The notes beneath the pieces are model-generated. The model saw only the letters and a list, made by a program, of their open reading frames with translations. It was not told the DNA's origin and did no database searches. DNA of 64,000 nt from a virus. Its lineage: Duplodnaviria > Heunggongvirae > Uroviricota > Caudoviricetes. The stretch covers positions 44,263 to 108,262 of the IMG/VR virus record IMGVR_UViG_3300020429_000539. One strand, 5' to 3'. The position numbers were made by a program, and so were the translations under genes. The first letter of the stretch is position 1; each line of letters opens with the position of its first letter. Of the stretch, positions 5,856-45,637 are shown one piece after another.

Positions 5856-5908
5856 ACGACGGAGGCCTCCTTCTTTTAGATGGAAGCCACCGTCGTTTTT
5901 GTGATAAA

Positions 5909-6258
5909 TGGAGCGCGAGGGGATCGAACCCTCGTGTCGGTCTGGTTCAGAAGAGACATCTACGAGCGTAGCTGCTGATTTAGCTTTTCATCAATCCTGC
6001 CAGCAGCGGCATGATTTTCAGAGCATCCCATTTGATCTCGATAGTTCGTCCTAGGGAATCGAACGCGCTATCTATCCGAAGTTCATCCACTCCCCAATCA
6101 TCGGAGTCATCGGGTCGTGGGCAGGCTGATTAGGCAGCCATGCGGAGGGTGTTGCTGTTGGCAACTAATTTTCGCATACCTTTTTACGAGGCCAGAGCAT
6201 GCTTCCTCGACTCGCAGTCTTCCACCTACACCATCCGGTCGAAAACCAAATGCGCCCC
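5909..6258 (-). ncRNA. ssrA: tmRNA (tag peptide ANSNTLRMAA)
   Basis: 5' GGGGCGCATTTGGTTTTCGAC, 3' T arm GAGGGTTCGATCCCCTCGCGCTCCA, about 350 nt; tag ORF GCC AAC AGC AAC ACC CTC CGC ATG GCT GCC TAA after AATTAGTT. Confidence 0.9.
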
Positions 6259-9708: not shown

Positions 9709-9755
9709 CAGGGCAGGAGGGACTCGAACCCCCGACATTCGAATTAGAAGTTCGG
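9709..9755 (-). pseudogene. 3' half of a split tRNA-Arg(UCU)
   Basis: CTAA-TTCGA-ATGTC-GGGGG-TTCGAGT-CCCTC-CTGCCCT-G; the acceptor strand pairs with the 5' half at 10611-10645. Confidence 0.8.
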
Positions 9756-9962
9756 CCACTTGAAAGATGGTAGAGTGTTATTTTGTAGAACTTTTATGGT
9801 TTCTTGTTCTTTGTTTATATGCACACTAAATTTAAGTTGCCTTCGATGCTTTGTCGTAGTAGATAGATAGATATAAAGATAATCTTTACAGACTTCTACT
9901 TTTTCAATGGCTTCAGGATTAACCGAAAAGCCTCTATTTTCAATAGGTATCATTATGGTCAT
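9744..9962 (-). CDS. hypothetical protein inside the split-tRNA insertion
   Basis: 72 aa; start overlaps the HNH stop, and its TAA lies in the anticodon loop of the 3' half. Confidence 0.5.
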   Translation of the reverse strand: MTIMIPIENRGFSVNPEAIEKVEVCKDYLYIYLSTTTKHRRQLKFSVHINKEQETIKVLQNNTLPSFKWPNF

Positions 9963-10477
9963 TCCAATACTCCCTGTGGGTTATGTAATTCAGCATGACA
10001 ATTGCGACAAACTAGGTCGCATTTGGCAAGCTCTTTGTCAATATCTACCTGTTTTCTGGTTCGTAGCTTGTTCCATTGGAACTCTTTTGTACTGCCATTT
10101 CTATGATGAAACTCAAGTGCAGCATAGTTCTTATTATATCCACAAATCGAGCAGCCTCCCCCTTTTTGTTTGATGGCTTCAATTTTTCGCTTTTGCCACC
10201 TTTCAACGCAGTATGCATTAAAGCAGGATTTGCAATAAGAGAGCAATCTATTTGTTTTTCCCTTAGTATTAAATTGGTCAAACGATTTTTCTTCTTTACA
10301 TCTGGCGCATGTTTTTGTAGTATTTGATATTCTATGTATCTGTTTTGTATTATGTTCCCCAAAAGGAGAACATTGAAGACAGTATTTTCTGTTTTGGAGG
10401 TTTCTTTTTTTGTCATCTACTACAATAGACGCTGGTATATTTTCACCGCAATTGCGACACTGGTTAGCCATAAGCAT
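9959..10477 (-). CDS. HNH endonuclease
   Basis: Several CxxC fingers; ALEFHHR...KCDLVCRNCHAELH. Confidence 0.85.
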   Translation of the reverse strand: MLMANQCRNCGENIPASIVVDDKKRNLQNRKYCLQCSPFGEHNTKQIHRISNTTKTCARCKEEKSFDQFNTKGKTNRLLSYCKSCFNAYCVERWQKRKIEAIKQKGGGCSICGYNKNYAALEFHHRNGSTKEFQWNKLRTRKQVDIDKELAKCDLVCRNCHAELHNPQGVLE

Positions 10478-10537
10478 TCTCCTTGAATACTTATTGCTAG
10501 CCTAACCGGATAATACCTTTATGTCTAATCTAGAAAA

Positions 10538-10610
10538 TAGGTCCACTGGGATTCGAACCCAGAATATCGGTTTAGAAGACCGATGTGATATCCGGTTTCA
10601 CCATAGACCC
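10538..10610 (-). tRNA. tRNA-Arg(UCU), replacement copy
   Basis: GGGTCTA/TGGACCT acceptor; TCGGT-CTTCTAA-ACCGA anticodon arm; CTGGG-TTCGAAT-CCCAG T arm. Confidence 0.85.
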
Positions 10611-10645
10611 AAATCCGACGCTCTGTCCAACTGAGCTACTGCCCC
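10611..10645 (-). pseudogene. 5' half of the split tRNA-Arg(UCU)
   Basis: GGGGCAG-TA-GCTC-AGTTGGACA-GAGC-G-TCGGA-TTT, ending at anticodon position 34. Confidence 0.8.
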
Positions 10646-30873: not shown

Positions 30874-30903
30874 TTGACCAGGTCGGATTCGAACCGACTA
30901 CCT
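30874..30903 (-). pseudogene. 3' part of a split tRNA (CAU)
   Basis: AGGTA-GTCGG-TTCGAAT-CCGAC-CTGGTCA-A; the acceptor strand is complementary to TGACCAG at 31519-31525. Confidence 0.8.
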
Positions 30904-31347
30904 GGATTTAGCCCAGCCAAATTGCTTAGCTGTTTTTCGCATATGACAGTTGGCACAGCGAAGTTCGCATTTGGCAATTTCTTTTTCAATCGTAGACCAT
31001 GAGTAGCACTGTGAGATCATTACAGATATAATCTCTTTCTTCTTTCCGCGAACATGGTCAAAGTGTAAAACAACAGGATCATTTTCTCCGCAATCCACAC
31101 AAGCTTTGCCAGAAAGGTACTCTATAAGCTTGTTTCTGTTAGATTCAATTTGTTTCTTAGAATGCCGTCTAGCTCTATCTTTGTAGATTTCTTTGTTTTC
31201 TTCGTAGTGTTTTTTAGAAGCTTGATTTGTGCAACTTCTACATCGAGAATGATATAGCTTTCTTTTCTTATCTTTGAAATTGAACTCTTTGGTAGACTTC
31301 GTTTTTTGACATCCAGAACAAGTTTTTGTATCCATGATTACCTCCAA
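30898..31347 (-). CDS. HNH endonuclease
   Basis: CxxC fingers; CVDCGENDPVVLHFDHVRG...KCELRCANCHMRK. Confidence 0.9.
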   Translation of the reverse strand: MEVIMDTKTCSGCQKTKSTKEFNFKDKKRKLYHSRCRSCTNQASKKHYEENKEIYKDRARRHSKKQIESNRNKLIEYLSGKACVDCGENDPVVLHFDHVRGKKKEIISVMISQCYSWSTIEKEIAKCELRCANCHMRKTAKQFGWAKSR

Positions 31348-31487
31348 GGATACTTTTCTTGCAAAGACTTGAATGTCTTTCTTTTATTTTGAATCTACAA
31401 AGAAGTAATAGGGCTACTCGGATTCGAACCGAGAACCTCGGAATTATGAGTTCCTTGCTCTGCCGTTGAGCTATAACCCCACGCGCA
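30904..31487 (-). mobile_element. HNH cassette carrying a replacement tRNA(CAU), inserted in a tRNA(CAU) gene
   Basis: Bounded by complementary tRNA pieces; contains an intact CAU tRNA and an HNH gene. Confidence 0.7.
31409..31480 (-). tRNA. tRNA(CAU), Met or Ile2; replacement copy
   Basis: GGAA-CTCATAA-TTCC; CTCGG-TTCGAAT-CCGAG. Confidence 0.85.
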
Positions 31488-31525
31488 TTATGAGTCGGGC
31501 GCTTAGCCGCTCAGCGCACTGGTCA
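31488..31525 (-). pseudogene. 5' part of the split tRNA(CAU)
   Basis: TGACCAG-TGCGCTGAGCGGCTAAGCG-CCCGA-CTCATAA-T, then breaks off. Confidence 0.8.
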
Positions 31526-33322: not shown

Positions 33323-33360
33323 GTCTATGTTTTCAGAAGAAACGCAATAAAGCCTCTAAA

Positions 33361-33463
33361 TCCGGCAGCGGGAGTCGAACCCGCAACTCAGGTTGTCAAG
33401 ACCTGACAGACGGGGCACGGTGGCACATAACCGTCACGGCTTTACCTATTAAGCTACACCGGC
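33361..33463 (-). tRNA. tRNA-like RNA with a UGA (Ser) anticodon arm and an about 30-nt insert after the D arm
   Basis: TCAGGT-CTTGACA-ACCTGA; insert GACGG-TTAT...CCGTC between the D and anticodon arms. Confidence 0.55.
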
Positions 33464-37979: not shown

Positions 37980-38139
37980 AGACAGGTATCCGCAACTTGA
38001 AGGACCAGAGGAACGGTCGTTTACTCGACGCCTCCGCTCTTGGCTACCCTTCGGGCAAGGGTTCCCGTTTACGCTCACGAGTTCGCTAACGGTTCACCTA
38101 TTGCTTTTGTATAGCGCTGAGCCTCCTGCGCTACTGTCT
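37980..38139 (-). ncRNA. candidate long-hairpin RNA (6S-like?)
   Basis: Nested complementary segments AGACAG/CTGTCT, GGAGG/CCTTC, GAAC/GTTC, CGTT/AACG, ACTCG/CGAGT around an A-rich bubble; fills the gap between two tRNAs. Confidence 0.35.
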
Positions 38140-38144
38140 GAAAG

Positions 38145-38216
38145 GGTGACTGACGGGATTTGAACCCGCATAAGACTGCTTCACAAGCAGTTGCATTACC
38201 AATCTGCCACAGCCAC
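38145..38216 (-). tRNA. tRNA-His(GUG)
   Basis: ACTGC-TTGTGAA-GCAGT; C73. Confidence 0.85.
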
Positions 38217-38218
38217 AA

Positions 38219-38292
38219 TGCCGATAGCAGGACTTGAACCTGCGCTGACGGAGCTTATGAGACTCCCGCTCTACCAACTGAGCTATACCGGC
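38219..38292 (-). tRNA. tRNA(CAU), Met or Ile2
   Basis: GGAG-T-CTCATAA-G-CTCC. Confidence 0.85.
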
Positions 38293-38296
38293 TACT

Positions 38297-38450
38297 GTTA
38301 GAACTTCCCGTAAGCGGGATCCTGTTTTATCCCATCATTTCTCTAGCGGCCCTTACCCGACCATCATTGCGTCACACCCGCGCTCCGGTCTGTTTAGGTT
38401 GCTACCTCTGCGGTCCAAACGGCTGTTTAGGCCTCCCCCATTCGCGAAGT
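38297..38450 (-). pseudogene. 3' part of a split RNase P RNA
   Basis: GAGAAATGATGGG...ACAGGATCCCGCTTAC-GGGAAGTTCTAAC; supplies the P2, P4 and P1 strands complementary to 39936-40011. Confidence 0.75.
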
Positions 38451-38454
38451 GCAG

Positions 38455-38769
38455 CTATACAAGCTGCGAAACGAGATTTCTCGCCAAATCTATGTCATCC
38501 GCATTCAGCATGCGATTGTTTGGCTCGGAAATGAGTAGAACCTTTTCTACTTCCCAGCAGTTATATGCATCCCAATCCCAACCATCATGAGATATTGAAG
38601 AAACGCCTTCATAAGGAGTTGCATTGCCGATGATGAGCATTTTTGGTATAGCAGAACCATCATTCTTGAGGTATATTATCATACCGGGCTGTAGCCCATG
38701 CAGTCGGATAAAATCCCCAAGCATAACTTTTGTCTTCGACAGGTCATGTATGATTTGAGTTTCCATCAT
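38455..38769 (-). CDS. hypothetical protein inside the RNase P insertion
   Basis: 104 aa with a TGAAAGG SD-like sequence upstream. Confidence 0.55.
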   Translation of the reverse strand: MMETQIIHDLSKTKVMLGDFIRLHGLQPGMIIYLKNDGSAIPKMLIIGNATPYEGVSSISHDGWDWDAYNCWEVEKVLLISEPNNRMLNADDIDLARNLVSQLV

Positions 38770-38782
38770 TGCCTTTCATTTA

Positions 38783-39044
38783 TTGGAAAAGAAATAAGCT
38801 CATAGCCAGGGTTCTGTTTCAACCTCTTCATTTATCTCATTCCGAAGAATGGCAAGCGTTTATAGCCTGCTGCCCGCTACCCGCCGGATCGTGCTGCTCA
38901 CCCACTACGGCCTATATGCGGTTAGTCCCTCGGTAGTCCAAACGGCTTATTCAGCCTCCTACCTTGTTAGCAGTGGACCCCTGAACTTCCTCACCAACAT
39001 GGTTTTCCCTTGCGGCGCGAAGAGTCGGCCCATTCCTTTTCCAA
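38783..39044 (-). ncRNA. rnpB: compact RNase P RNA (intact inner copy)
   Basis: 17-bp P1 (TTGGAAAAGGAATGGGC/GCTTATTTCTTTTCCAA); P2 CTCTTC/GAAGAG; P4 GAGGAAGTTCAGGG/ACAGAACCCTGGCTA; AGATAAATGA joining motif. Confidence 0.8.
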
Positions 39045-39889
39045 TTCCTTTGATAACACCTATTAGAACAGAAATAACGACTATTGGTTTCGGTGTCGTA
39101 TTCTACTCCGCATTCTTTACACTTGCGGCCTTTGTAACTCTGCTTAACGATTGAATCCCATTTGTAAGCGAAACAAGACAGAGGACAAGGGCCTATGAAT
39201 TCAAAGAACTCGAAAACACTTCGATTCGGAATCAATATCCTGTTTCTTTGGGCTACGGAAGACTCTACTCCTACTCCTTCGAGTTTGCCCGTCAAGATAT
39301 GCAAGCTTTCACTGTTAAAACTATCTGTGCAAAGCCAAATGCCTCGTTCATTATCAAGACTCCCATCTCCGAGAAACCAATGCAAGGCAGTTAAGGGCTT
39401 CATTGACAAATCTTGAGGCACTTGTTTGCCTTCAGTTGTATACCAGACATTGTGAAGCAATGTCATCGTGGGGCTGTTTCTGGTCCGAAGATAGAATGCT
39501 TTTTTGCAATGAACTTTTCGACCTAGTATTGATGACTCATGAGCTTTCCGACTAGATTTGCGAAGAGGGAAGGACAATGAGTCTGATAGGAAATCACTAT
39601 ACTCCTCATGGATTGAGGCGTGTATTAGTTGGTAGTTCTTTGCCCGGCTTGATTTACTAATACATCCGTCAGATAGTAAAAGACCATTCAGTATTTCTTG
39701 GTCTTCTTGATTCAGTTCGAAGGTATTTTCGGCTTGTATCTTAGCAAACCTGCAATCTTTGCTGCAAAACTTTGTAGCCTTGTCTTTGCGGGCAAGGAAA
39801 GATGTTGAGCAAGATTCACAAGACCTTTCAATAAACTGATGATTACCGTCAGTCCAATGACCAAACTCTGTTTTTCGTAGTTTCCCCAT
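38951..39889 (-). CDS. LAGLIDADG homing endonuclease with zinc-finger termini
   Basis: ILNGLLLSDGCI and ALHWFLGDGSL motifs; CxxC...FCS fingers at both ends; own TATAAT about 25 nt upstream. Confidence 0.85.
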   Translation of the reverse strand: MGKLRKTEFGHWTDGNHQFIERSCESCSTSFLARKDKATKFCSKDCRFAKIQAENTFELNQEDQEILNGLLLSDGCISKSSRAKNYQLIHASIHEEYSDFLSDSLSFPLRKSSRKAHESSILGRKVHCKKAFYLRTRNSPTMTLLHNVWYTTEGKQVPQDLSMKPLTALHWFLGDGSLDNERGIWLCTDSFNSESLHILTGKLEGVGVESSVAQRNRILIPNRSVFEFFEFIGPCPLSCFAYKWDSIVKQSYKGRKCKECGVEYDTETNSRYFCSNRCYQRNWKRNGPTLRAARENHVGEEVQGSTANKVGG

Positions 39890-39935
39890 TGTATTATCCT
39901 TTCTATCAGATATTATACATACAAAGGGGAGAACT

Positions 39936-40011
39936 CCTTCTTGCAGTCCCGACTTTCCTCTCGTCCGTATGGAATCAGTGACGGATAGAGCGATGGGTCG
40001 GAAGTTCTAAC
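39936..40011 (-). pseudogene. 5' part of the split RNase P RNA
   Basis: GTTAGAACTTCC (P1), CCCATC (P2), a P3 hairpin and GAGGAAAGTCGGGAC (P4). Confidence 0.75.
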
Positions 40012-40027
40012 CAGTTTATCTCGAAAA

Positions 40028-40151
40028 AGCCTGCGTCAGGATTCGAACCTGAACAACCTCTGTTGCAAAGAGATAACCTTCTATCCATCGACTCCAAGGA
40101 GTAAGGGGCGGCAGAAGACCGTTTAGCATGCTACCATTACATCACACAGGC
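40028..40151 (-). ncRNA. tRNA-shaped RNA containing a permuted Y-RNA-like module
   Basis: Acceptor GCCTGTG/CGCAGGC; insert CCTTA-CTC-CTTG-GAG-TCGATGG...GGTTATC, then CTCT-TTGCAAC-AGAG; T arm TCAGG-TTCGAAT-CCTGA. Confidence 0.7.
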
Positions 40152-40153
40152 AT

Positions 40154-40378
40154 TCAATCAGTTTTTGCTTTATGACCGCAGTTGCGGCAGCAAATCGTTT
40201 TGTTTGTATGCCCCACGTTGCAGTCGGGACAGTAAATGAAACCGTATTTTTCACGAAGCTTCATAGCTCTTTCGTGACTTGCTCGCAGTCTTTCTTTCCA
40301 TGCGGGCGAATCCCAATCTTCTTCGTAAGGCCAATCTGCTGGTCGTTTCCAGCCAGGATTTCTGAGTCTGTCATTCAT
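40154..40378 (-). CDS. small zinc-finger protein
   Basis: MNDRL...YCPDC...CCRNCG; start trimmed to avoid the RNA gene. Confidence 0.5.
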   Translation of the reverse strand: MNDRLRNPGWKRPADWPYEEDWDSPAWKERLRASHERAMKLREKYGFIYCPDCNVGHTNKTICCRNCGHKAKTD

Positions 40379-40391
40379 GACAATCTCCAAA

Positions 40392-40511
40392 AGCGCCGAG
40401 CAGGACTCGAACCTGCAACCCACAATGGATGTTAACCGTTGCTCTTCGGCTTCGAAAAGCAAGTTGACGAGGACGGTGGAAATTGTTGCTCTACCATTGA
40501 GCTACCGGCGC
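40392..40511 (-). ncRNA. tRNA-shaped RNA whose anticodon loop is replaced by a permuted Y-RNA-like module
   Basis: Acceptor GCGCCGG/CTCGGCGC; anticodon stem ACAAT/ATTGT encloses CTTG-CTT-TTCG-AAG-CCGAAG...GGTTAAC. Confidence 0.7.
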
Positions 40512-44080: not shown

Positions 44081-45637
44081 TCAGACCACGGCGAGGGCAT
44101 CCGCGACAGGATACAGGGTCAACGGTCCCGAAATCTCATGACCTGTCAGAATAGGAAGACAAGGCCCCAGGTTTTGATACGATTTCAGGTTCCATTTTTG
44201 CTGAAGTCTGGTCGTTCCTTCGGGACAGATGGGATGAAGCAGCGCTGCTGCAATCTGAATCATCTGAACGGCGCAGACCATGCACCAGTCAAATTTCTCT
44301 TGAGATTCAGGGTCATTTTGCTTCGCGAGCTTCCACGGTTCCATATCACTCAGAAGCTTGTTTGCATCATTGATGACAATGTTTGCCCTGCGCACGAGCT
44401 TAGGGATATTCAAGTTTCGCGCATCTTTACCAGATTTGACGAGTTGCTTGAGAGCAGAGAATCCACCCGTCGCAGTTTCGATGTAGTCAGGAAAGTCGCT
44501 TTCTGGTCGAACGAGTTTATTGTCTCGATATGTCTCGATGAGTTTGCCCACACGGTTGACAAGATTTCCGAAGCCTTTCGCGAGATTGGAGTTATAAAGG
44601 GCAAAGACTTCTTCCGCATCGAAGTTGGCGTCAGAGGCTCCCCATGGACCTTGAGCGGCCAAATAATAGCGGATACCATCGATACCAACTTGCTCAGCGA
44701 GTTTCTTAAGGCCTTCGATACTCACGAAGTTGCTGCTGCTCTTACCCATCTTGCGCTGGTCATGAACCCAAAAGCTATGAGCATGAATCCGTTCAGGCAA
44801 AGGCAAGTCAAGCGCGATAAGCAGCGCGGGCCACACAACAGCATGGAACCACAGGATATCCTTGGCGATAATATGTGTCGGAGGCCAGATTTCTTCTGTC
44901 TGCTTACTGTTTTTATCGCTCAATGCGCTGATGTAGTTGAACAGCGCATCAATCCACACGTAGACAACCTGTTCTGGTTCGCTGGGCAGAGAAATGCCCC
45001 AACTACCGTCAGGCACTTTTCTTGTAATCGGAATGTCGTTGATCTCGCCTTCAAGGCGCTTGATAACTTCGTTGCGCCTCTGTTCTGGCGTGATAAAGTC
45101 GGGCGTTGACCTGACATGGGCAAGGATGGCTTCGCGGTATTTGCTCAGCTTGAAAAACCAGTTCTTTTCTTTTCGGCGTTCGAGAGGCCTGTCGGTAATA
45201 GGGCACTTGTAGTCAGATTTTTGAGCAGCATGTTCGGTCACGTATTCTTCTTGGCCAGCGTTATACCACCCCTCGAAGTCATCCTCATAGACATCTCCCT
45301 TACCAATAAGGTACGAGACATGAAGAATTACTGTCTCTCTGTGACGGCGTTCAGTCGTGCGAATGAAATCATCGTTTCTGACTCCAAAGGCTGCAAAGGC
45401 ATCACGGAAGTTCTGAGCGTGCGTATCGCACCATTCTTCAACAGGCACTCCTGCTGAGATAGCTGCCGCTTTCACTTTGTCCGCATGCTCGTCCGTACCT
45501 GTGACGAAATGGACTTGTTCATCAGCATACAATCGCAGCGCCCGCGCAGCGATATCGGCCATCAGGGTCGTGTAGATATGACCGATGTGCGGGTTTGCGT
45601 TGACGTAATAGATGGGGGTCGTGAGGTATTTCGTCAT
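44081..45637 (-). CDS. metG: methionyl-tRNA synthetase
   Basis: TTPIYYVNANPHIGH (HIGH), YVWIDAL, AKDILWFH, KMGKS. Confidence 0.95.
   Translation of the reverse strand: MTKYLTTPIYYVNANPHIGHIYTTLMADIAARALRLYADEQVHFVTGTDEHADKVKAAAISAGVPVEEWCDTHAQNFRDAFAAFGVRNDDFIRTTERRHRETVILHVSYLIGKGDVYEDDFEGWYNAGQEEYVTEHAAQKSDYKCPITDRPLERRKEKNWFFKLSKYREAILAHVRSTPDFITPEQRRNEVIKRLEGEINDIPITRKVPDGSWGISLPSEPEQVVYVWIDALFNYISALSDKNSKQTEEIWPPTHIIAKDILWFHAVVWPALLIALDLPLPERIHAHSFWVHDQRKMGKSSSNFVSIEGLKKLAEQVGIDGIRYYLAAQGPWGASDANFDAEEVFALYNSNLAKGFGNLVNRVGKLIETYRDNKLVRPESDFPDYIETATGGFSALKQLVKSGKDARNLNIPKLVRRANIVINDANKLLSDMEPWKLAKQNDPESQEKFDWCMVCAVQMIQIAAALLHPICPEGTTRLQQKWNLKSYQNLGPCLPILTGHEISGPLTLYPVADALAVV

Follow-up and report, generated by a model that had tools for sequence, protein, structure and literature searches.

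Organization of the nested rnpB locus

The DNA analyzed here, referred to below as the window, is a stretch of 64,000 nucleotides (nt) from a virus of the Caudoviricetes (IMG/VR record IMGVR_UViG_3300020429_000539, positions 44,263 to 108,262), and it contains a gene for the RNA of ribonuclease P (RNase P), rnpB, that is split in two by an insert with a second, complete rnpB inside it. The window is part of a complete 488,051-base-pair (bp) virus record with direct terminal repeats, and the stretch is present in marine metagenomes of several studies. The outer gene encodes a miniature RNase P RNA, 223 nt in length when its pieces are joined, and the 1,487-bp insert carries a LAGLIDADG homing endonuclease gene, a compact rnpB and an orphan open reading frame (ORF), with all features of the locus on the minus strand (Table 1). 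This content had been proposed in an initial annotation made from the sequence alone, and was borne out by matches to PF03161 and RF00010 (E 5e-15) and by the presence of the orphan ORF, ORF104.

The long-range pairing between the outer pieces, which had likewise been proposed, proved to be exact. Helix P1 is formed by GTTAGAACTTCC (40011-40000) and GGAAGTTCTAAC (38308-38297), which pair at 12 of 12 positions and represent the sole 12-nt perfect inverted repeat within 38200-40100. P2 joins CCCATC (39997-39992) to GATGGG (38336-38331) at all six positions, and the 8-bp P4 joins AAG(T)CGGGA (39955-39947) to TCCCGCTT (38319-38312), or AAG(U)CGGGA to UCCCGCUU at the RNA level. When each outer half was scanned alone, it matched only RF00010 among 4,227 Rfam families, as truncated matches of 12.8 bits for the 5' half and 16.1 bits for the 3' half, scores in which the long-range pairs P1, P2 and P4 earn no credit. 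A 5-nt repeat, CTGCA, borders the insert on both sides and contains the palindrome TGCA, and the outer and inner copies have the 12-nt sequence AGCCGTTTGGAC in common (38413-38424 and 38936-38947), as the initial annotation had pointed out.

The endonuclease matched PF03161 with 64.8 bits against a cut-off of 25, and PHROG 11023 with E 2e-30. It contains two LAGLIDADG motifs (LNGLLLSDG, at residue 67, and LHWFLGDGS) and zinc-ribbon-like CxxC pairs at both ends. Its gene is present as a single copy in the genome; homologues comprised 13 proteins with 27-52% identity, and comparison with PDB sequences gave no match. One further candidate, L001, was rejected because its match consisted of the zinc-ribbon motif only. 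For ORF104, Pfam gave nothing above the cut-off, the one weak match being to DUF7765 (E 0.02), PHROGs gave no family at all, and a search of 5.8 billion sequences recovered only the phage's own protein, with no informative Atlas match. It has no paralogue, and no similarity to the cargo ORFs of other cassettes.

The last 88 nt of the endonuclease ORF (38951-39038) lie within the inner RNA, an overlap at the C-terminus that the initial annotation had pointed out. Helices P1-P5 of the inner RNA thus encode the last 29 residues of the LAGLIDADG protein, forming a dual-coding region in which the protein stretch ...W(K/R)(R/K)NGPTLR is encoded by the P1 and P2 strands. At a related locus, L012 (1379-1465), the overlap and the position of the stop codon are the same as in the window, and at another, L013, the ORF stops earlier, in P3.

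Table 1. Features of the nested rnpB locus, in window coordinates (aa, amino acids).
Feature	Coordinates	Strand	Description
tRNA-Met(CAU)	38219..38292	-	4 nt downstream of the outer gene 3' end; same adjacency in L053
Outer RNase P RNA, 3' piece	38297..38454	-	Truncated RF00010 match, model 184-367, E 0.0014
P1 3' strand	38297-38308	-	Outer 3' piece
P4 3' strand	38312-38319	-	Outer 3' piece
P2 3' strand	38331-38336	-	Outer 3' piece
AGAGAAAUG	38336-38344	-	Outer 3' piece
3' parts of P5, P15, P16, P17		-	Outer 3' piece
Small stem-loop with AGCCGUUUGGAC		-	Outer 3' piece
P6 5' strand (CUUCG)	38445-38449	-	Outer 3' piece
Second CTGCA copy	38450-38454	-	Outer 3' piece
Inserted cassette, 1,487 bp	38455..39941	-	Absent from the syntenic relative L053
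ORF104, orphan cargo ORF, 104 aa	38455..38769	-	GAAAGG ribosome-binding-like site
Inner complete miniature RNase P RNA, about 250 nt	38787..39038	-	RF00010 53.2 bits, E 5e-15, full model span
LAGLIDADG homing endonuclease, 312 aa	38951..39889	-	Pfam PF03161 (LAGLIDADG_2), E 1.2e-17
Cassette left end and leader	39890..39941	-	TATAAT-like and AAAGGA ribosome-binding-like elements before the endonuclease ATG (sequence reading)
Outer RNase P RNA, 5' piece	39942..40011	-	Truncated RF00010 match, model 1-66, E 0.0099
P5 5' strand plus A (CTGCA)	39942-39946	-	Outer 5' piece
GAGGAAAGUC / P4 5' strand	39947-39955	-	Outer 5' piece
P3 hairpin	39959-39989	-	Outer 5' piece
P2 5' strand	39992-39997	-	Outer 5' piece
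P1 5' strand	40000-40011	-	Outer 5' piece

An uninterrupted allele at the insertion site

Alignment of the two outer pieces with the inner copy placed them side by side at a single homologous position, and the uninterrupted rnpB of another phage (L027) aligned straight through the junction, with the best fit obtained when CTGCA was counted once. The 21-mer predicted for the fused gene was found as contiguous DNA in two metagenome contigs, L052 (486,890 bp) and L053. The latter is syntenic with window positions 34-44 kb at 85-96% identity, and contains neither the endonuclease nor ORF104. Window segments 38139-38454 and 39942-40162 correspond to L053 positions 6857-6542 and 6546-6326, neighbouring segments that have CTGCA in common; the empty site reads GTCGGGACTGCA followed directly by CTTCGCGAATG. 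Because the flanks abut in L053, we conclude that the window carries a 1,487-bp insert with a CTGCA repeat. The two genomes, otherwise colinear, are therefore polymorphic for the presence of the insert at one defined site, and the empty allele expected in relatives exists at the exact junction predicted. The uninterrupted gene in L053 scored 67.1 bits on RF00010 (E 1.2e-18) and has a transfer RNA (tRNA) gene directly after it; the intact outer-type alleles, at 67.1 and 56.5 bits, fall below the Rfam gathering score of 100.

Both junctions of the insert are bridged by contigs from DNA runs of other studies, with 0 differences: the left junction by X10 (39734-39978) and X12 (39867-40136), and the right junction by X10 (38396-38619) and X12 (38296-38500). 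No contig joining across the insert was found in two RNA and two DNA runs, a result that, coming from contigs, says nothing firm on splicing or on empty alleles in those samples.

Comparison with the intact L053 gene indicated which of the two copies was there first. The joined outer copy is identical to it at 207 of 223 positions (93%), the 5' piece being colinear at 95.9% identity and the 3' piece 92.7% identical, and the outer and inner copies share 71% identity. These values indicate that the outer copy is native to the locus and that the inner copy was introduced. Relative to the intact alleles, the outer copy has kept all of its core motifs and every helix except P6, which pairs CUUCG with CGAAG in the intact alleles and opposes CUUCG to UGUGA in the window (2/5 mismatched). 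Its P17 has changed in a compensatory way, from GAG/CUC to GCG/CGC.

The inner RNA and its family

The inner copy is a real, constrained RNA that belongs to a conserved phage family without the specificity domain (S-domain). It was accepted by Infernal over the full span of the RNase P model (match at 38787-39036), at a score below gathering, and contains P1, P2, P3, P4, P5, P6, P15, P16 and P17 together with two extra hairpins; its P1 may extend to 38782-39045. The canonical S-domain (P7-P14) is missing: the cmscan alignment has about 40 nt where the model has about 140 positions, and in the family alignment only a 5-bp stem and a 3-bp hairpin stand in its place. In bacterial RNase P RNA this domain reads the elbow formed by the T-loop and D-loop of the tRNA. 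At the Rfam gathering threshold no RNase P RNA was reported in the window, and an RF00010 profile search of the phage's own genome also returned none; since members of this family score below the cut-off or are filtered, neither result is evidence of absence. Apart from the inner copy, the 488-kb genome has no complete gene for an RNase P RNA.

To describe the family we built a covariance model, R1, from the inner copies of the window and L012, with an RNase-P-style structure written by hand because RNAalifold had confused P2 with P4 in its consensus. Attempts to align the outer pieces, or distant family members, with MAFFT gave misalignments that were not used. On R1 the inner copy scored 314.8 bits, the uninterrupted L053 gene 87.1 bits and the outer 3' piece 44.6 bits. 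When seven full-length members (197-257 nt) were aligned to R1, 98.5% of cells were paired and 48 of the 62 pairs showed compensatory changes; none of 500 shuffles was as good, and slid partners paired at 33-49%. The P4 and P6 pseudoknots lie outside the R1 model, yet they were 100% paired with compensatory changes, which in P4 affected four of the eight pairs. A contig from an RNA library spans 38841-39042 on the inner RNA, with a per-contig depth of 94.5 compared to 3-5.5 for its neighbours, although this is a hint only, since contig depth cannot rank genes and RNA libraries may hold DNA.

Related RNAs are widespread in viral sequence data. A scan of viral contigs for the motif shared by the outer and inner copies gave no match. 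A motif scan of viral contigs yielded 30 loci, 26 of which were confirmed by R1 (32-244 bits), many of them on contigs of 100-500 kb and none with the endonuclease. Nine of these loci were re-scanned with Rfam, and most of their rnpB genes lie among tRNA genes; seven of the nine were detected, at 44-63 bits on RNase P models and below the cut-offs. The initial view that a phage-encoded RNase P RNA is unusual thus agrees with the literature searched, and fails for the sequence data. More generally, large phages commonly encode mini RNase P RNAs of about 165-340 nt that lack the S-domain (L022-L051, L052 and L053); those detected by Rfam scored 44-67 bits, below gathering, and some fit the archaeal model better than the bacterial one.

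Recurrence of the module

The combination of endonuclease and miniature rnpB is not confined to the window. Homologues of the endonuclease (34-52% identity) adjoin a miniature rnpB in eight of the nine other contexts examined. L015 is a second fully nested case, in which both halves, with matching P1, P2 and P4 strands, surround an ORF of its own (ORF138), the endonuclease and a complete rnpB, and L013 has kept a full 5' piece. In L013 and L015, as in the window, the 5' piece breaks off immediately past the P5 5' strand, at an identical structural position, and the left end of the window cassette resembles that of the L013 cassette, observations that fit site-specific homing of one element family. 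At other loci the displaced gene is less complete: L012 and L017 have 5' stumps ending at GAGGAAA, the stump in L016 is degenerate, and L019 has a 3' piece in which P6 is lost, with no 5' piece nearby. This spread of decay stages indicates that the displaced copy is not maintained. In L015 (2403-7938) and L014 (1208-2380), the endonuclease/rnpB modules lie among genes of RNA repair and processing, for RNA ligase, Tpt1-like 2'-phosphotransferase, RNase T and RNase H.

Inner-type rnpB genes also occur without an endonuclease, at a different locus, in the relatives L025 (1004-1254), L034 and L039 (7647-7897). In L025 and L039 this gene adjoins a homologue of a gene located outside the window, at about 116.5-117.6 kb of the present genome, where there is no rnpB.

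Two further loci in the window show a comparable arrangement in tRNA genes. At 9709-10645 (minus strand), the anticodon loop of a tRNA-Arg(UCU) gene is interrupted by a cassette that starts with an intact tRNA-Arg(UCU), continues with an HNH gene and also contains a 72-aa ORF. At 30874-31525 (minus strand), the interrupted gene is a CAU tRNA, and the cassette consists of an intact CAU tRNA and an HNH gene. The two endonuclease ORFs matched PHROG HNH proteins (PHROG 2255) with E 1e-44 and 1e-32, and had no Pfam match. The presence of these cassettes indicates that splitting and replacing a gene is recurrent in this genome, across different endonuclease families.

Genome setting

The locus lies in a very large minus-strand tRNA array, with 43 tRNA matches to Rfam in the window. 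A phage-encoded transfer-messenger RNA is found at 5906-6258 on the minus strand (RF00023, 101 bits). A degenerate tRNA-like element at 40028-40092 (minus strand; RF00005 19 bits, E 1), directly upstream of the outer rnpB 5' end, has a good T-arm, GGTTCGAATCC. Two minus-strand tRNA matches, 40392-40511 (120 nt) and 33360-33463 (104 nt), have large insertions inside them, and several further tRNAs in the window are 82-92 nt in length, though their isoacceptor families normally have a short variable arm. A strict scan for minus-strand promoters gave no match, and neither did a blastn comparison with GenBank phages. No relatives were found for a neighbouring protein of 266 aa, and a neighbouring protein of 142 aa has relatives in ten smaller phages, all without rnpB.

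Discussion

We consider it likely that this locus was produced by a homing-endonuclease cassette, one that destroys the rnpB already in place and provides an immune gene in its stead. The initial annotation had suggested endonuclease-driven replacement, and the empty site in L053, the covariation of the inner copy, the bridged junctions and the recurrence of the module all support that suggestion. In the mechanism that we propose, a resident outer-type mini RNase P RNA gene would have been invaded by a mobile cassette comprising the endonuclease, a diverged complete rnpB and the orphan ORF. The endonuclease would cut uninterrupted outer-type alleles at the DNA for the P5/P6 junction, and the break would be repaired from a cassette-bearing genome, with the flanking gene halves serving as homology arms and the cassette being copied in. 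The target gene would thereby be destroyed, with RNase P function retained through the replacement ribozyme gene of the cassette, which differs at the target site and is presumably immune to cutting. The 88-nt overlap may tie the endonuclease and the replacement gene tightly together; such an overlap, with the same stop in L012, should keep the endonuclease and its immunity allele from being parted by recombination. The inner RNA would then act as the working ribozyme for the large tRNA array, probably with the RnpA protein of the host. It is tempting to speculate that, as the inner RNA matures, the endonuclease mRNA would be severed at a point before its stop codon.

Several observations weigh against this interpretation. 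The cleavage specificity of the endonuclease is a prediction, and activity of the inner RNA is proposed by analogy, since its 53.2 bits are below the gathering score of 100, its S-domain is missing and no RnpA gene was found in the phage genome. The outer halves are almost pristine, with core motifs and all helices but P6 in place, so that their loss of function is presumed from the mispaired P6 and from the fate of such pieces elsewhere. The endonuclease-free inner type in relatives complicates the history of the two gene types in the lineage. Finally, the 5-nt CTGCA duplication is unlike classical homologous homing and hints at another kind of founding integration. LAGLIDADG enzymes leave 4-nt 3' overhangs, and together with the TGCA palindrome this raises the possibility that the founding integration involved end joining.

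An alternative, raised in the initial annotation, is that the outer gene still works: the insert would loop out or be cut away, and the halves would assemble through P1, P2 and P4 as a two-piece ribozyme beside the inner one. The halves retain the 12/12 P1, the 6/6 P2 and the 8-bp P4, as well as P3, P5, P15, P16 and P17, and the core motifs GAGGAAAGUC, AGAGAAAUG and ACAGGAUCCCGCUUA have all been kept. The compensatory change in P17 could be taken in the same sense, and because the minus strand of the locus has only one weak terminator-like candidate (about 39341-39360, in the endonuclease ORF), read-through co-transcription looks likely. There is also a precedent among proteins, as nrdA of phage Aeh1 is split by a homing endonuclease gene yet functional (PMC3045599). 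However, the displaced pieces at L012, L016, L017 and L019 are truncated, degenerate or missing, indicating that they are not maintained, and P6, perfect in the intact alleles, is mispaired in the window. The insertion lies between the P5 and P6 strands, within the core fold and not at a hairpin tip, and the near-identity to L053 is equally explained by recent insertion. The cofolding energy of the two outer halves relative to shuffles, with a z of about -0.2, was uninformative. Overall, we regard a functional outer gene as unlikely, and a slightly more specific version, in which the array is transcribed and the pieces, of 70 and 158 nt, then anneal to form a natural two-piece RNase P, giving the phage two different mini ribozymes, as a little less likely still. 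If it were true, homing endonucleases could create fragmented ribozymes besides replacing them. As things stand, the outer halves appear to be a young relic.

The insert could in principle be a self-splicing or otherwise excised intron, in which case the spliced outer RNA would read GGGACUGCA joined directly to CUUCGCG. LAGLIDADG genes are common in group I introns of structural RNA genes, and the insert, precisely placed, runs in the orientation of the gene that it interrupts. Against this, a scan of 38200-40150 that admitted E values up to 10 gave no match to a group I or group II intron family. Two ORFs and a complete RNase P RNA take up almost the whole insert, leaving about 50 nt free at the left and none at the right and hence no room for a ribozyme core, and an insert removed by splicing would have no need to carry an entire replacement gene. 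An intron is accordingly very improbable. An assembly chimera or a collapse of two rnpB loci, conceivable for a metagenome-assembled genome with two homologous RNA genes, is effectively excluded, because the X10 and X12 contigs bridge both junctions without a difference, the copies at 71% identity are too diverged for collapse, and the same architecture occurs in L015, L013 and L012.

If replacement by a homing cassette is the correct reading, the locus would illustrate a third way for a selfish endonuclease to reside in an essential gene, besides the self-splicing intron and the intein, namely to bring a spare copy of the gene. It offers a case in a ribozyme gene for which both the 'before' allele (L053) and the 'after' allele (the window) are available. 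Together with the two tRNA cassettes, the rnpB modules in several phages suggest a general route for the horizontal replacement of structural-RNA alleles in tRNA-rich giant phages. The locus also adds to the evidence for a widespread, unannotated family of phage RNase P RNAs without the S-domain, all below the Rfam cut-off. As experimental material, it provides natural minimal ribozymes, along with a natural endonuclease whose candidate target site is well defined.

Comparison with known systems

The RNAs described here resemble bacterial type A RNase P RNA (RF00010; E. coli M1 RNA), which removes the 5' leaders of pre-tRNAs, in having P1-P5, the P4 and P6 pseudoknots and P15-P17, and in the conserved GAGGAAAGUC, AGAUAAAUG and ACAGAAyCC-GGCUA stretches. 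They differ from it in that the whole S-domain, P7-P14, is reduced to a stem-loop of about 45 nt, in their length of 197-276 nt and scores of 44-67 bits, and in being phage-encoded within tRNA arrays, in this phage without an RnpA gene. Reduced RNase P RNAs have been described previously, including the type T RNA of Pyrobaculum and engineered RNAs consisting of the catalytic domain only (PMC5839562). In the literature that we searched, coverage of which was incomplete, neither a phage-encoded RNase P RNA nor an rnpB carried along with an endonuclease had been reported.

Two phage systems share parts of the arrangement. SegB of phage T4 is a free-standing endonuclease that carries out intronless homing in the tRNA gene cluster (PMC2330249; reviewed in PMC2988022). 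As in the mechanism proposed for the window, the endonuclease gene adjoins the region targeted in rival genomes, flanking RNA genes are co-converted, and the setting is a phage tRNA array. SegB is a GIY-YIG enzyme that replaces homologous flanks, with no nested gene, whereas the LAGLIDADG cassette lies inside its target and carries a substitute. In Aeromonas phage Aeh1, nrdA is split by mobE and is still functional (PMC3045599), and here too a free-standing endonuclease gene, with no intron or intein around it, interrupts an important phage gene. In that case the halves reassemble and no replacement is carried; at the present locus a replacement is carried and reassembly is unsupported.

The closest described analogue appears to be provided by the fungal mitochondrial elements known as mobile endonuclease ORFs (mORFs), which insert together with a foreign replacement gene segment, as in atp6 of Allomyces macrogynus and atp6, atp9, cox2 and nad3 of Glomus (PMC3630166). 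In both systems a LAGLIDADG gene (mORFs also use GIY-YIG) travels with a diverged copy of its target, enters the native gene and leaves a displaced leftover, and in both the native leftover is closer to the allele of relatives than the incoming copy is (in the present case the outer halves are 93% identical to the L053 gene, and the inner copy 71% identical to the outer). The differences are nevertheless considerable. The target of mORFs is a protein gene, of which they supply a C-terminal segment, whereas the target here is a structural RNA, a ribozyme, for which a whole gene is supplied, so that no hybrid gene is formed and both native halves remain. In addition, the host of the present cassette is a giant phage, and its endonuclease ORF overlaps the replacement gene that it appears to have brought with it.

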